A stretch of DNA of 64,000 nt from an uncultured Eubacteriales bacterium (lineage in GTDB: Bacteria > Bacillota > Clostridia > Oscillospirales > UBA644): positions 47,104 to 111,103 of the forward strand of contig URFZ01000004.1 in NCBI GenBank assembly GCA_900547165.1, in the 5' to 3' direction. The notes beneath the pieces were generated by a model. That model did not search any database, had not been told where the DNA came from, and saw only the letters and a program-made list of their open reading frames with translations. The position numbers and the translations under genes are program-made. Positions 42,826 to 48,665 of this stretch are shown piece after piece; within the stretch, counting starts at the first letter, position 1; each line of letters begins with the position of its first letter.

Positions 42826-44580
42826 TTATTTCATAATGTTAAGTTCACCGATTTTTTCTATAAATGATTTATTTATATAAGACGTAATCTCATCATCAGT
42901 TTCTTGCAGAGAGAGCCACTCACTTAAGTCGCAAAAATTCTTTTTAGTTACAGCCATATCTTCAGACGTAGAGAATTCTTGATTATTAAAACAAAGCCCC
43001 AGTAATAATTCTGCGATTTTTCTCTTTTTCGCGTTATTTGACTGCGCATAACTCTTCTTAAAGGTTTTCAACATTTCTGAATCAAAGCTTTCAAAACACA
43101 TTTTCGATATTGCAATTTTTTCATTATATAATCCATTGTCTAAATATGCTATAAATCTTTTTTTCTGTTTATTCATAATTACCCGATTTTCAAACCTCAT
43201 TGCTGTATTGTATAATTCTTTCCATTCGGGAGCAATGTTTTCTATCTCTACAACGCTATATCTTTCAGATTCTTCCGTTTTTTCAGTTATAACCCTCAAA
43301 AAACGTTCATTAAGACCTTTTACCATTTTCGAAGGATCCACTTCACATGGGAAAGGAATCTTTACACTTTGCAGCATTTGAACTTTTGTCAAGAACGAAA
43401 TGATTTGTTCACAAGACAAGTCTCCTGAATATGCCTTTTCTACGACTTCCGAAAAACCCTTATCTATATCTTGTTTATCTAAATCCCAAAAGTTCTTCCA
43501 CAAAAACAGTTCCCATGGCTGTATCTCTGAATCCCCGTATTTTCGTGTCAATTCAGAAATAAAAGCATCTTCGTTCCAATATCCAGTATTAATCCATTCA
43601 CTTAGTGAATCAAATGAACTGTACGCTTCTCCCTTATTAAGAAATCTTTTATTTGAATTAAAAATAGGTGCCAACACCTCTTCATCAGAAATATCAACTT
43701 GTTTATCCTCTTTAGAACTCGCTTCAAACCTCTCGGCGCCAAAAGTATATAAAACCCATTTCATATTCTCTGTCGAAACAGACGTCCCTTGCCAATAGCC
43801 GAAAACCCTTTCAAAATCTGCTAAAATATATTTTAAAATACGAATATTCTGAGAACTGCTCTCTCCGAACAATTGTCTTACAAGAACAATGTTCTGACGC
43901 AAAAAATCCTTATAGCCCAACTCTGTTTCATTATATCCGTCAACAACAGTATCGACAACAGCATTTTTATCAAGTTCAATTTTTATGGTTCTTGAAATAA
44001 CTTTTTCCTTATAATCATTATAGCATTTTTCTGTGTTGATTTTATTCTCGTCAGCCACCATAATCGTTTTTATATTTTTGTTTTCAACATAATCGTTTAT
44101 TGCGCCCAACAAATCTTGTGCATCAATTTTACACCGTTCAAAATCATCAAATGCAAGAGCAAATCTCATATCATTTTTCACAGTATTACTCACTTTTAAT
44201 AAGTCAGAAAAATCTATTGATTCTAATACTGATGTAACCCCACTGACAACCGCCGAGACGACAGGATTACTTATCGTGCACGCAGTCGTATCAATTAATT
44301 TCTTTGTACCTTCTTTCATTGGTTTCGCAGCTTTTTTAATTTTTTTCGCATGTGGCATTTGGAGCGCGAAATATGCGGATTGGACTCTTTGGTTTAAGGT
44401 TTTAACCTCTGTAATTCCAAACAAAGATATTACTGCAACGGCAATTTTTTTTTCACTAAACTCTTTTGCAATTTCTTTAATCAAATAGGATTTACCGCAC
44501 CCCCACTCTCCCGTAAGTAAAAGTGCTCCCGTTGCTTCTTTGCAGTTAAGATAGCTTTCAATTTCTTTTCTGATATCCAT
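42826..44580 (-). CDS. KAP-family P-loop NTPase
   Basis: 584 aa. Walker A LLLTGEWGCGKSY, Walker B-like FALAFDDFERC. The gene is strongly AT-rich compared with its flanks. Confidence 0.75.
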   Translation of the reverse strand: MDIRKEIESYLNCKEATGALLLTGEWGCGKSYLIKEIAKEFSEKKIAVAVISLFGITEVKTLNQRVQSAYFALQMPHAKKIKKAAKPMKEGTKKLIDTTACTISNPVVSAVVSGVTSVLESIDFSDLLKVSNTVKNDMRFALAFDDFERCKIDAQDLLGAINDYVENKNIKTIMVADENKINTEKCYNDYKEKVISRTIKIELDKNAVVDTVVDGYNETELGYKDFLRQNIVLVRQLFGESSSQNIRILKYILADFERVFGYWQGTSVSTENMKWVLYTFGAERFEASSKEDKQVDISDEEVLAPIFNSNKRFLNKGEAYSSFDSLSEWINTGYWNEDAFISELTRKYGDSEIQPWELFLWKNFWDLDKQDIDKGFSEVVEKAYSGDLSCEQIISFLTKVQMLQSVKIPFPCEVDPSKMVKGLNERFLRVITEKTEESERYSVVEIENIAPEWKELYNTAMRFENRVIMNKQKKRFIAYLDNGLYNEKIAISKMCFESFDSEMLKTFKKSYAQSNNAKKRKIAELLLGLCFNNQEFSTSEDMAVTKKNFCDLSEWLSLQETDDEITSYINKSFIEKIGELNIMK

Positions 44581-44708: not shown

Positions 44709-44752
44709 TTAACAAAATGAGCGGTATGGAACGCATGTTTCATACCGCTCAT
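44709..44752 (-). terminator. Hairpin terminator/attenuator between the methyltransferase gene and the KAP NTPase gene
   Basis: 12-bp stem ATGAGCGGTATG (44717-44728) / CATACCGCTCAT (44741-44752), followed on the minus strand by TTTTGTT. It starts 4 nt after the stop codon at 44757. Confidence 0.45.
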
Positions 44753-44756
44753 CATT

Positions 44757-47027
44757 TTACTTCAAAAATTCATATTCAAACAACGTAGGGACAATTTCGC
44801 TGTTATAATACTCTTTCACTTTTTGTTTTAAAGACTTTAAAGCCCCATTAAGCTCAGGATAATCCGGTTTGTTTTCTCCTGATTCTTCATCTGCGGTAAA
44901 AGTGTTGAGTTCTGCAAAAATCTGATATACACCATAAGTCAATTCTTTATTGTAGTTATTAGTTTTCTTTGCCCACTTAAACACTGTTTCCCATATGCTG
45001 AACAGTTCTTTTTCTTTTAACGTGACATTAAGTTTTTTTAAATCATGGCTTGCCAAAGTTTCTCCGTTTGTTGTGTCAAGGCACAATTCATTCCGGTAAA
45101 ACCGATTATCCGTACCGTGAAAACTTCTCATATGGTTTTGCATTTCAAAACAAGTAAAAACAAGACACTTTAATAAGAACTGACTCAATTTCCCGCTTTT
45201 TACGTCGGCAAAGAATTTATCTGCCCCATCTGCCGATTTCATAATTCTTGCGCGTTCCGTCCATTCTCTGTTATATGTAATATACCTGCTTGCACAGAAC
45301 ATCGGTAACTTTTCAAGATAATTATCTTTGCGAACATAAAACCCATTCCCGTCATATCTTCCAGCAACCGTAAATCCTGAATTTAAGTCCGGATTATCAA
45401 ACCCTGCAGAATTTGCAACTAAAAATCCGATGATATTATCGTCCCATACTTTTTTTACTCTCGCGCTTTCTTTGCTATATTCTGTTCCGTTCAGATTACA
45501 ACAAATCCCGTCTGTCTTATCATTATTATAAGAGGTTTTATCATAGTATTTATCAGCCAAAGTATAATAACATTTTTTAATAGTTAATTTTTCAGGCATC
45601 TCAACCAATTCTCCGCCGACTATATCAAAACCAACCGTATTAAACTTTTCGATATTTTCAGATATGTTTTGCCACGCAACAACTACAATACAAGCATCTA
45701 TCTTTGTATGAAAGTGCTTTCTGTTAAACGCGTAACTTCCGATTATTTTTTTGTTTATTAGATGATGTATTTTCCAATACTTGATCGGCGAATACACTAT
45801 ATAACAATCAGTTTCTTGTCTTAAATAGTATTTAAACCCCGACCAAATAAAAGCATTTCCTAAATCATTTGTACCTGATCCCTTAATCTCTTTCTTCATC
45901 TCTTTTACAACATAGCTGTTTTTCCAACCACTGTTTATTTTTGTTGTACCGTTTGATTCTGCATAAGGCGGATTTTCGAATAAAATTATTGTACAATTGG
46001 GGTCATCGATGTAACTTTTTATAACAGGGTTCTTTACATATTCTTCAGATAACGCGTCAGCGCCTCTGACAAGCCCCATATTAAACGTATCTTCTTTTTC
46101 AATCGGCGGAACAATATATCGAACTTTACTGCCTAACAATTCCAGCAATACTTTGTATTCATAGTATTCAATGGTCGATACAATACAATGGGAAAGTTCT
46201 TCTTCGGTCATTGTTTTTTCAAGGTTACCGGTTCCGGCACAGCGATCCAAGATTATATAATCGTTTCCTTCGGGTACCCTTTTAATAGCTTCCCTTACCA
46301 ATTCAAGAGATTTTTTTACATAGGGCTCCGGTGTATAGAAAGCACCTAAATTCTTTTTTTGAAGCGTGTCGTTCAATTTATCCATTAGATACTGAAAACG
46401 CACATTGTCTTTTCCTTTATAAGGGAAAATATAGTCTCTAAATTTAATAGGTTCTCTGATTTCACCGATAATCTTGACTTTACCGGTGTTATCGCCGATA
46501 AAATCTGATTTTCGAGCCTGTGGGTTTTCGCGGTAATACTTTTCTGCCCAACCCACAATACAGTTTTCATCAATATTAATCTTTGTATAGGATTTCTCTT
46601 TAAGCAACTGAATTAAAGAAAACTCATCCTTCTCGTCTTCGATATATTTTAGTTTTGAGATATAATCGGAAGCGAAAAATCCAACATTCTTTTTTGATGC
46701 ACCGCCGACATAAACCTTTTCAATGTGAGCCAAATAATCTTTTGAATGATATACATAAACAGTACCCGTATTTAAAGAAACCAAAAGAATATTAGCAGGA
46801 ATCGGCTCCCCCTTAACTCTCATAGCAGAAAGATATTTTATCGTTTGCAACAAACAAGCATTGAGATCTGTTATATTCAATTTAAATTCAAGCAAATTCC
46901 CGTTTAAAATACCATCTGTGTTATTACGAAAAATATCATCAAATGTCAATTCAGGATTAACGATTTTTAAATATTGCTCGTAAAATTCAATTTGACCTTC
47001 AAGTTCAACACTGTATTTTTTCAACAT
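44757..47027 (-). CDS. Single-polypeptide restriction-modification-like enzyme: N-terminal PD-(D/E)xK-like motif fused to a gamma-class N6-adenine DNA methyltransferase (Type IIG/IIL-like)
   Basis: MTase motifs GAFYTPEPYV (X), ILDRCAGTGNL (I) and FENPPYAE (IV). N-terminal TDGILNGNLLEFK is D-x8-E-x-K. The start is taken at ATG 47027, which has AGGAGG 7 nt upstream; the track start at 47048 is a GTG. Confidence 0.7.
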   Translation of the reverse strand: MLKKYSVELEGQIEFYEQYLKIVNPELTFDDIFRNNTDGILNGNLLEFKLNITDLNACLLQTIKYLSAMRVKGEPIPANILLVSLNTGTVYVYHSKDYLAHIEKVYVGGASKKNVGFFASDYISKLKYIEDEKDEFSLIQLLKEKSYTKINIDENCIVGWAEKYYRENPQARKSDFIGDNTGKVKIIGEIREPIKFRDYIFPYKGKDNVRFQYLMDKLNDTLQKKNLGAFYTPEPYVKKSLELVREAIKRVPEGNDYIILDRCAGTGNLEKTMTEEELSHCIVSTIEYYEYKVLLELLGSKVRYIVPPIEKEDTFNMGLVRGADALSEEYVKNPVIKSYIDDPNCTIILFENPPYAESNGTTKINSGWKNSYVVKEMKKEIKGSGTNDLGNAFIWSGFKYYLRQETDCYIVYSPIKYWKIHHLINKKIIGSYAFNRKHFHTKIDACIVVVAWQNISENIEKFNTVGFDIVGGELVEMPEKLTIKKCYYTLADKYYDKTSYNNDKTDGICCNLNGTEYSKESARVKKVWDDNIIGFLVANSAGFDNPDLNSGFTVAGRYDGNGFYVRKDNYLEKLPMFCASRYITYNREWTERARIMKSADGADKFFADVKSGKLSQFLLKCLVFTCFEMQNHMRSFHGTDNRFYRNELCLDTTNGETLASHDLKKLNVTLKEKELFSIWETVFKWAKKTNNYNKELTYGVYQIFAELNTFTADEESGENKPDYPELNGALKSLKQKVKEYYNSEIVPTLFEYEFLK

Positions 47028-47085
47028 AAACATACCTCCTGGATTCACTGCTTATAAACTTCTTTACCTCTCACTTTTGCAATGC

Positions 47086-47114
47086 ACAACATAATCGACA
47101 TTATGTTGCAAACA
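47086..47114 (+). repeat. Left inverted repeat of the invertible switch (ACAACATAATCGACATTATGTTGCAAACA)
   Basis: Exact 29-bp reverse complement of 47383-47411. Internally it has ACATAAT / ATTATGT arms around an asymmetric CGAC. Confidence 0.9.
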
Positions 47115-47183
47115 GGCAAAGCGGCGGCGATATATCGGGCTTTGTTGACGGCATAAGCGGAGTAAAAAGAGAATAGAAACGGC

Positions 47184-47209
47184 ATAAAAAAAGCCGCCCG
47201 AGGGCGGCA
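47184..47209 (-). terminator. Rho-independent terminator inside the invertible segment, active on the minus strand in this orientation
   Basis: GCCGCCC-GAG-GGGCGGC (47193-47209), followed on the minus strand by TTTTTTT (plus-strand A-run 47186-47192). Confidence 0.6.
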
Positions 47210-47314
47210 GATAAAAATGCGTATAAGAAAATAAGCCTTTTCCGAAACATCTAAACGAGAGAGGCTTTATTCGTATGTTTTATTTTTTCGAAAACTCAAA
47301 ACTCTTTTATGTAC

Positions 47315-47343
47315 TTGACAAATTGTCACGGATATGTTACAAT
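47315..47343 (+). promoter_or_regulatory. Near-consensus promoter inside the invertible segment, currently facing away from the methyltransferase gene
   Basis: TTGACA (47315-47320), a 17-nt spacer, then TACAAT (47338-47343). Confidence 0.65.
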
Positions 47344-47382
47344 AAAACAAATAAAAATGTTATGTTATAAACAAATTAATTT

Positions 47383-47411
47383 TGTTTGCAACATAATGTC
47401 GATTATGTTGT
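47383..47411 (-). repeat. Right inverted repeat of the invertible switch
   Basis: TGTTTGCAACATAATGTCGATTATGTTGT is the exact reverse complement of 47086-47114. Confidence 0.9.
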
Positions 47412-47447
47412 ATACGTCGCCGAGTGGCGGCGTTTTTTGTTTTTGGG

Positions 47448-48290
47448 CTACAATACTAAATGCATATTTTCCATGCGGCGGCGGTGTTCTTCACCTGTGG
47501 AAATGATATATATGCGGGTGGTGTTGATACTGCTGTGTCCGAGAATATCCGCGAGCTTTGCAATATCCTTTTCAATGCAGTAAAACACTCGGGCGAACAG
47601 GTGGCGCAGATTATGCGGAAAAACTTTTTGCGGGTTGACATTTGCTTCGGCGCATAATGCTTTCATTTCGCGCCAAACGGTCGTTCTGTCCAACGGTTTT
47701 CCTGAACGGGTGATGAAAATCATTCCCGATTTTATTTTTTGCTCTGCTGCGTAGCGGAGCAATTTTTGTTTTAGTTCTTTCACAATAAATACCGACCGTG
47801 TCTTTGCTTTGCAGTTTACAACAGCCTCGCCTTGCTTTACAGCCTCAACGGTTATAAATTGCAGTTCGCTGACGCGGATACCTGTGCCGCAAATTGTTTG
47901 CAAAATTAAGCAAAGGCGTTTGTTGCATTTTTTAGCGGCGGTACGGCAAAGACGTTCGTATTCTGCTCTTGTAAGTTCTTTTTCTTCGGGGCAGAATATT
48001 CTGCGTTGAAGTTTGAGCGATTTTACTTTTAGTTCCGGGTGTTCGACAAATTCAAAAAATGCGTTCAAACCGGCAAGCATGGAATTTACACTGCGAACAG
48101 CATAATGACCGTTAAGAAAATTCTTGTATGACACGACGGTTTCTTTTGTGACAAGTTGTCCTTTTGTATAACGGGCAAATACGGAAACATCACGAACATA
48201 TTTTTCAATGGTAGCTGTACTGCGTTCGCAATAAGTCAGATGTCGGCGAAAGCGCGAAATATTATCCGATTTTATTATAAGTTCTTTCAT
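47448..48290 (-). CDS. Tyrosine site-specific recombinase (XerC/D-phage integrase family)
   Basis: Start moved to the ATG at 48290 (MKELIIKSDNISRFRRHL...). Catalytic-region motifs HNLRHLFA and LGHSSINTTRIY. Confidence 0.85.
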   Translation of the reverse strand: MKELIIKSDNISRFRRHLTYCERSTATIEKYVRDVSVFARYTKGQLVTKETVVSYKNFLNGHYAVRSVNSMLAGLNAFFEFVEHPELKVKSLKLQRRIFCPEEKELTRAEYERLCRTAAKKCNKRLCLILQTICGTGIRVSELQFITVEAVKQGEAVVNCKAKTRSVFIVKELKQKLLRYAAEQKIKSGMIFITRSGKPLDRTTVWREMKALCAEANVNPQKVFPHNLRHLFARVFYCIEKDIAKLADILGHSSINTTRIYIISTGEEHRRRMENMHLVL

Positions 48291-48420: not shown

Positions 48421-48665
48421 CGAAAAAAAGACAGCGTCTGTTTCGGAATATCCCCTGCTCGAATCTCAAACACTTTCCGCACTTTGCAGACATGACCAAA
48501 ACAATATCAATTTATTTGATTATGTTTTGTTTGACAGATACCCAAATAATCTTCCGCGAAACCGCCCGAGGCGGCGGCGAGGGTGAGTTGAGCGGCGGCG
48601 AGCAAGCGGAGCGCAGGCGCAGCGGCGAGACGGAATGAGCTGAAACAAGTGTGTTCGAGAGAGAA
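48421..48665 (+). repeat. Dispersed noncoding repeat of about 245 bp, copy B
   Basis: Collinear with 22254-22500, with its core at 48578-48632. Lies between the recombinase gene and dpaA. Confidence 0.7.

Follow-up and report, generated by a model that had tools for sequence, protein, structure and literature searches.

Promoter switches that turn a neighbouring gene ON or OFF by DNA inversion are exemplified by fimS of Escherichia coli, an approximately 300-bp promoter segment between inverted repeats that is served by adjacent tyrosine recombinases (FimB/FimE) and in which the end of the recombinase transcript depends on orientation. Here we describe an element predicted to share all of these features in a 64,000-nt stretch of DNA (the window) from an uncultured Eubacteriales bacterium (assembly GCA_900547165.1, contig URFZ01000004.1, positions 47,104 to 111,103). 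Its inverted repeats lie between the gene of an Xer-like tyrosine recombinase and that of a 756-aa protein predicted to be a DNA methyltransferase (the methylase), and the whole is very probably a genuine promoter inverton for the methylase gene. It differs from fimS in several respects: the recombinase falls outside the FimB/FimE family by NCBIfam cut-offs, the repeats are 29 bp long rather than 9 bp and each contains a complete palindromic core site, the OFF state is insulated by two dedicated terminators, and the target is a methyltransferase rather than fimbriae.

Other described systems share part of this design. Like the present element, the RecV-dependent switches of Clostridioides difficile (cwpV, flgB, cmrRST and pdcB) reside in Clostridia, are short and intergenic and invert by tyrosine recombination, and their surface, motility and cyclic di-GMP targets belong to the same categories that we find in the wider family of switches described below. 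In C. difficile the distant RecV alone serves several sites, and several of the switches act through terminators or post-initiation mechanisms, whereas the switches of this family each have an adjacent recombinase, a shared core and a locus-specific 4-nt spacer. The invertible promoters of gut Bacteroidales, whose invertons were reportedly described with PhaseFinder by Jiang et al. 2019 (cited in PMC11741434 and PMC11868660), have the inverted repeats, promoter, ON/OFF logic and human gut habitat in common with our element but differ in phylum, promoter type, recombinases and repeat motifs.

In the papers covered here, the inverton targets described are capsule, fimbrial, surface-protein and antibiotic-resistance genes. 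Among restriction-modification systems, coding sequence is rearranged in the Type I hsdS ‘epigenetic invertons’ (PMC7672463, PMC7641763) and Type III mod phasevarions switch by repeat slippage (PMC11868660), while the inverton-like methyltransferase variation in a survey of the gut microbiome consisted of rearranged gene fragments (PMC11741434). Such systems and the present locus have in common a reversible heterogeneity of methyltransferase or restriction activity in a clonal population, but here the coding sequence is untouched and the flip of a promoter would switch transcription. Type IIG enzymes are also phase-variable by repeat slippage. For the window, an hsdS ‘epigenetic inverton’ or shufflon was considered and rejected, as the segment lies between genes, has no recognisable gene inside and is accompanied by no HsdS, HsdM or HsdR domain in a Pfam search of the locus proteins. 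In the papers that our literature search covered, no restriction-modification or methylase gene was described as the target of a promoter inverton (one may be listed in the tables of Jiang et al. 2019), and none gives the sequence of the core site. The mechanism is known in kind, with an unusual target gene and an apparently undescribed family of recombinases and sites.

An OFF-oriented promoter between inverted core sites

The first-pass annotation, made from the window sequence alone, had proposed a perfect 29-bp inverted repeat around 268 bp, and we recovered exactly this pair, two repeats of 29 nt with 100% complementarity that enclose 268 nt (Table 1). When the 64-kb window was scanned for the core CAACATAAT-N4-ATTATGTTG with up to three mismatches, the only two sites were those in the repeats, and the core was found in 0 of 100 dinucleotide shuffles of the window. 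The enclosed segment is intergenic, between the methylase and recombinase genes, and the only open reading frames of at least 60 aa that touch it are spurious plus-strand frames (47309-47506 and 47386-47583).

The promoter inside the segment is the top match of the 5 kb scanned, scoring 12 on a scale with a maximum of 13 against 8 for the best gene-facing site. It reads on the plus strand, as had been claimed. Between the methylase ATG and the left repeat lie 58 nt, in which no minus-strand promoter-like site with at least 9 of 12 matches was found; sequence reading and the promoter scan together thus bear out the earlier description of an ATG with a good ribosome-binding site behind a promoterless 58-nt gap. 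By arithmetic, a flip would bring the end of the −10 hexamer to about 47154 and the start of transcription to about 47147, roughly 120 nt upstream of the methylase ATG, which agrees with the distance originally proposed.

Two putative intrinsic terminators accompany the promoter. The one inside the segment was correctly described as acting on minus-strand transcripts only, because the plus strand has no T-run after the hairpin. The other, situated in the gap that separates the right repeat from the recombinase stop codon, had been overlooked, and it overturns the claim that the promoter fires antisense into the recombinase gene: since this terminator acts on the plus strand, the OFF-state promoter would yield an RNA of about 90 nt (47350-47440) and no antisense transcript into the recombinase gene. 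The predicted RNA consists of the repeat hairpin followed by the terminator hairpin (z = −4.7) and matches no known RNA family at Rfam thresholds.

Table 1. Coordinates, within the 64-kb window, of the switch and of the neighbouring features
Feature	Position	Strand	Remarks
Left (gene-proximal) inverted repeat	47086-47114		core site ACATAAT-CGAC-ATTATGT at 47089-47106
Right (recombinase-proximal) inverted repeat	47383-47411		core site ACATAAT-GTCG-ATTATGT at 47391-47408
Invertible segment, 268 bp	47115-47382		captured OFF, promoter directed away from methylase gene
Near-consensus sigma-70-type promoter, TTGACA-17(TG)-TACAAT	47315-47343	+	11/12 matches, consensus match only
Internal intrinsic terminator, GCCGCCCTCGGGCGGC hairpin and T7	47208-47193, within 47184-47209	−	
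Outward-facing intrinsic terminator with T-run	47414-47433, within 47414-47443	+	between right repeat and recombinase stop
Xer-like tyrosine recombinase, 280 aa	47448-48290	−	transcribed toward the switch
Methylase ribosome-binding site, AGGAGG	47035-47040	−	7-nt spacer to ATG
Target gene, 756-aa unannotated protein	44757-47027	−	ATG at 47027-47025
Hairpin with 16-bp stem directly 3′ of methylase stop	44717-44752		probable 3′ end of the switched transcription unit
KAP-family P-loop NTPase	42826-44580	−	matches PADLOC candidate defence family PDC-S49, 3e-50

Core-site switches in gut and rumen Clostridia

Support for inversion is mostly comparative and comes less from the element itself. In a scan for the core site across GTDB, with each species represented by one genome, at least 119 stretches matched, nearly all of them in Clostridia of the gut or rumen, and 80 loci were examined. 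Among the matches listed, 52 of the 80 loci had an inverted partner site at a median distance of 251 bp, the 4-nt spacer was exactly complementary between the partners in 51 of these 52 pairs, and the paired loci together used at least 32 distinct spacers. Within the 22-nt pattern, the paired sites had mismatches at the first two and last two positions and nowhere else. The part of the repeat that the first-pass annotation had singled out as a recombinase core, with 7-bp arms ACATAAT/ATTATGT around an asymmetric centre, is therefore the same part that is conserved across dozens of recombinase-linked repeat pairs in Clostridia, with the 4-nt centre covarying.

The surroundings of these sites are equally regular. 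At 37 or more loci a homologous recombinase (42-77% identity) is encoded next to one repeat, its gene being directed toward that repeat and ending 0-150 bp away, and the gene on the far side of the repeat pair is nearly always co-directional with that of the recombinase. Promoter scores of at least 11 were obtained for 22 of 38 segments, compared with 3% of dinucleotide shuffles (p ~1e-23). The best promoter faced the recombinase in 17 segments and the target in 4 (binomial p = 0.007), so that each of the two states exists, OFF being the commoner one in consensus assemblies. Inversion itself is directly evident in relatives: between two Acutalibacteraceae genomes (loci L151 and L186), flanks that are 98.7-98.9% identical lie in the same orientation and the approximately 340 bp between the repeats are inverted. 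Site conservation, spacer covariation, promoters in the segments and inversion in relatives all support the comparison with the logic of fimS, cwpV and the Bacteroides invertons that had been drawn from the window alone.

Elsewhere in the family, the targets comprise a giant leucine-rich repeat (LRR) surface protein, a collagen-like protein, a PilB-type ATPase, two GGDEF proteins, a VWA protein and glycan-related enzymes, which is the classic phase-variable repertoire. Some loci depart from the simple two-site arrangement. L151 (6803/7065/7126) and L186 (136-477) each contain three core sites with one spacer, the two right-hand copies being 61 bp apart; such three-site switches could allow more than two states, and the inversion observed there used the outermost pair. 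In L167, two core sites (49-70 and 90-111, spacer GGAA) stand in direct orientation 41 bp apart, so that recombination between them would excise rather than invert. Three metagenome-assembled genomes (MAGs) have two core-site loci each (L109/L125, L110/L137 and L166/L173), and within each the two loci carry different 4-nt spacers, which is consistent with the spacer preventing cross-recombination between switches of the same genome. Contigs also end 0-40 nt from a core site or inside one (L117, L120, L158, L165, L129, L239, L242 and L244), and the assemblies may have broken there because the sampled populations contained both orientations.

Copies and sister cassettes in other samples

Searches with the methylase and recombinase proteins gathered 28 unique contigs of the window type from human-gut metagenomes, with methylases at least 99% identical. 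In two of them (L002 and L017) the spacer has changed from CGAC to CGAT in one arm and from GTCG to ATCG in the other, a concerted C-to-T change, and no window-type contig has arms with mixed spacers; this is what would be expected if strand exchange needs identical central bases in the partner sites. One human-gut contig (L104, 4264-6530) has a frameshifted methylase gene (61 + 697 aa) next to an intact switch and recombinase gene, and another (L249, a single low-coverage contig) has one arm mismatch in the gene-proximal repeat.

The cassette of recombinase, switch and methylase recurs in at least three genomic contexts, other species included. In L019, whose methylase and recombinase are 77% and 68% identical to those of the window, a 20-bp perfect repeat contains the same core and the promoter (TTGTAA-17(TG)-TATAAT) is directed away from the gene, the OFF state. 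This cassette also has an internal terminator that faces the gene direction and an outer terminator (4708-4686) beside the recombinase gene; the two-terminator architecture is thus conserved between the window and L019, while the inner sequence is not. L227, from a Hadza gut sample, shares 98.4% methylase identity with L019. Here the gene-proximal repeat of L227 abuts the promoter end of L019 in reverse complement (~53 of 57 bases identical), and the sequence downstream of the repeat is identical to L019. L227 therefore carries the ON junction of the sister cassette.

In another lineage (P0019-type, spacer CGGC), two independent contigs begin 4 nt before the gene-proximal repeat. A pig-gut lineage (L228-L234) has a degenerate gene-proximal repeat (ACATTAT..ATTGTGT, two arm mutations) about 40 nt upstream of the methylase ATG and an intact recombinase-proximal repeat, and each of its contigs is OFF. 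There the cassette adjoins a transposase and a VbhA/Fic toxin-antitoxin pair.

The recombinase and the target gene

The recombinase matches Pfam Phage_integrase (3.6e-24) and has all of the catalytic residues R-K-H-R-H-Y. Its true start is probably the ATG at 48290, behind a GGAGG ribosome-binding site, giving 280 aa, and its stop codon (47448-47450) is separated from the right repeat by 36 nt in our count, confirming the first-pass distance of 37 bp to within one base. Against NCBIfam models it stays below the cut-offs both of the FimB/FimE-type invertases (PRK09870, 28.4 bits against 221; PRK09871, 26.7 against 222) and of the Xer equivalogs (XerD, 113.8 against 329.6; XerC, 104.4 against 335; XerA, 131 against 220). 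The nearest sequence matches in the PDB are members of the Xer family, the best being 4a8e (‘XerC-like’), followed by XerA and XerD, so that by sequence the protein is Xer-like in a general sense only. Between cassette lineages the ratio of nonsynonymous to synonymous substitution rates (dN/dS) is 0.07-0.14 for the recombinase and 0.02-0.19 for the methylase. Both genes are therefore maintained, which argues against a permanently silent gene.

The 756-aa protein has the motif order X, I, IV (GAFYTP, 228-233; LDRCAGTG, with DRCAGTG at 261-267; FENPPY, with NPPY at 352-355). In 26 homologues nearly all residues of GAFYTP, DRCAGTG and NPPY are invariant, and P233 and A264 are conserved in at least 90%. 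Searched with Foldseek, the AlphaFold model (predicted local distance difference test, pLDDT, 72) gave CamA (1.3e-6), BrxX (PglX; 4.5e-5) and BsaXI (2.2e-4) as best matches, and the C-terminal region resembles a target-recognition region. With Type IIG/IIL (MmeI-like) enzymes, CamA and PglX/BrxX of BREX the protein shares this gamma-class motif order, a C-terminal DNA-recognition region and a stand-alone gene, but it differs from them in giving no sequence-level Pfam or PDB match. Motifs and modelled fold together make the assignment to the gamma class of N6-adenine DNA methyltransferases well supported. The N-terminal 150 residues are modelled as an alpha/beta domain (pLDDT 86) with D38-X8-E47-x-K49 invariant among homologues, and a nuclease half, hence a Type IIG-like enzyme, is plausible; the difference from Type IIG enzymes is that this invariant D-X8-E-X-K goes together with non-significant fold matches to PD-(D/E)xK nucleases. 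From the initial label of a restriction/methylase gene, the methyltransferase part thus stands on motifs and fold, while the restriction part, for which the N-terminal domain shows no significant fold match, is a plausible conjecture.

The protein family is large (more than 3,700 sequences in ~600 clusters at 50% identity), and sequences at 57-79% identity occur in Bacillota (including Streptococcus), Bacteroidota (Prevotella), Actinomycetota, Spirochaetota (Treponema) and others. No conserved neighbour of the methylase was found in 80 GTDB loci (L018-L097), and it behaves as a stand-alone, horizontally mobile gene. The adjacent KAP NTPase was considered as a partner and rejected, being absent from all 80 of these loci and from the other cassette contexts. 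Its gene has its own promoter-like site and lies beyond the strong hairpin that follows the methylase stop codon. Because of this hairpin, the separate promoter-like site and the absence of KAP elsewhere, the switch most likely controls one gene and no operon, and the earlier notion of a ‘defence-type operon’ should probably give way to that of a single gene. Methylase, KAP and switch lie in a low-GC island (42.5-47.5 kb) with 31-37% GC against 45-56% in the flanking genes, and the recombinase gene beside it is intermediate (41-44%).

Two further sequences in the window resemble parts of the repeats. Within the KAP NTPase gene, TGTTTTCAACATAATCG (44079-44095) was examined as a third recombination site and dropped for want of a second arm; it matches one arm and the inner flank of the repeat (15/15 with one mismatch), probably by chance or as a vestige. 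About 210 nt upstream of the recombinase ATG (~48497-48533, minus strand) lies a 13/15 palindrome with ACATAAT (CAAAACATAATCAA..ATTGATATTGTTTTG), whose spacing is unfit for a core site and which could be an accessory or autoregulatory binding site.

Proposed mechanism and alternative explanations

We propose that the 280-aa recombinase would bind the 7-bp arms of both core sites and exchange strands across the asymmetric central CGAC, with inversion of the 268 bp as the outcome because the two sites are inversely oriented. In the OFF orientation the promoter would fire toward the recombinase gene and its short transcript of ~90 nt would stop at the outer terminator, while transcription that ran on from the recombinase gene would be stopped by the internal terminator before it reached the methylase gene, so that OFF would be double-locked. 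Given this promoter direction and the internal terminator, the methylase gene would therefore be left promoterless with its ribosome-binding site kept. In the ON orientation the promoter would lie ~120 nt upstream of the ATG and read through the left repeat into the gene, and the internal terminator would face away from it. The product would be a single-polypeptide N6-adenine DNA methyltransferase, which may be a Type IIG-like restriction-modification enzyme, and switching would create reversible ON/OFF heterogeneity in genome methylation and possibly restriction.

Several observations weigh against such a working switch. The promoter and terminators are consensus matches rather than mapped transcript ends, and the 756-aa protein gave no match in Pfam (also at E = 10), NCBIfam, PADLOC or phmmer and profile searches of the PDB. 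For the model of its N-terminal domain, Foldseek returned nothing better than E = 0.09, with PD-(D/E)xK nucleases making up many of the weak matches. All 28 window-type contigs are OFF, with no ON junction for this element. A search of Joint Genome Institute (JGI) metagenomes found neither the flipped-junction pattern nor an orientation-neutral one, a null that carries no weight because that collection is without any copy of the locus. The switch of the pig-gut lineage, always OFF and mutated twice in the arms of one repeat, may have locked naturally, which would mean that such switches can lock. An element derived from a true inverton that has ceased to flip, with the methylase permanently silent or reached only by leaky read-through, would account for the single orientation and for the pig-gut relative, and would fit the frameshift in L104 and the arm mismatch in L249 as well. 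We nevertheless consider a locked or relic switch unlikely for the window. Both of its repeats are perfect across 29 bp, the sole polymorphism seen in more than one contig is the concerted change in both arms, and the recombinase keeps all of its catalytic residues. Strong purifying selection on both genes points the same way, since decay would be expected of a 2.3-kb gene that is silent for good. The majority orientation is, moreover, all that consensus assemblies show, and OFF also leads in the family by 17 to 4. What had been called an invertible switch captured OFF is OFF in every copy found, and inversion is seen in related switches; that the window copy flips at present, that its promoter drives the gene and how the gene product functions are what we infer.

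Two other explanations dispense with a methylase switch. The captured orientation might itself be functional, in that the ~90-nt RNA would serve as a small RNA or regulate the convergent recombinase gene, methylase switching being incidental. That the predicted transcript folds well, has its own terminator and is retained in the captured orientation by every window-type assembly would agree with this, but its structure is made up of the palindromic core site and the terminator hairpin, both already explained by inverton logic, and it finds no Rfam family at threshold. Conservation between the window and L019 extends to the architecture and not to the inner sequence, and the sister element in L227 has its promoter joined to the methylase gene, so that we judge a functional small RNA very improbable. 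It is harder still to credit that the repeats have no regulatory role and bound a small non-autonomous mobile element or are attachment-site remnants of an integrative element. Acquisition is indeed suggested by the low-GC island and by the occurrence of the cassette in several genomic contexts, once beside a transposase, yet the window holds no further copy, and repeat pairs in the family sit between the 3′ end of a recombinase gene and a gene that is nearly always co-directional. Their spacers covary within pairs and differ between loci, their segments are enriched in promoters, and related loci differ by inversion rather than by presence or absence of the segment.

Implications

Taking the promoter inverton as the preferred explanation, we also put forward a broader reading, which is tentative and in our judgement slightly more apt to fail than to hold. 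The window element may be one copy of a mobile, self-contained ‘switchable methylase’ cassette that spreads as a unit among gut Clostridia and combines an Xer-like invertase with an insulated promoter inverton and a restriction-modification-like enzyme made up of one protein from an unannotated family. It would belong to a large undescribed inverton family that shares the arms ACATAAT/ATTATGT and in which the 4-nt spacer keeps switches of the same genome apart. If this is true, promoter inversion would for the first time have been described as an ON/OFF control for a restriction-modification-type gene, and the family would offer a natural set of orthogonal recombinase sites and a candidate toolbox.

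Core site, locus-specific spacer and adjacent recombinase together amount to a sequence rule by which invertons of Clostridia can be recognised without read data, and the family of the 756-aa protein, with more than 3,700 sequences and no annotation, merits a name. Promoter inversion is a route to variable methylation distinct from repeat slippage and from hsdS shuffling. If the switch is active, an abundant uncultured lineage of human-gut Clostridia would toggle genome-wide adenine methylation, and possibly restriction, between subpopulations, with effects on phage resistance, on the uptake of foreign DNA and possibly on gene regulation.

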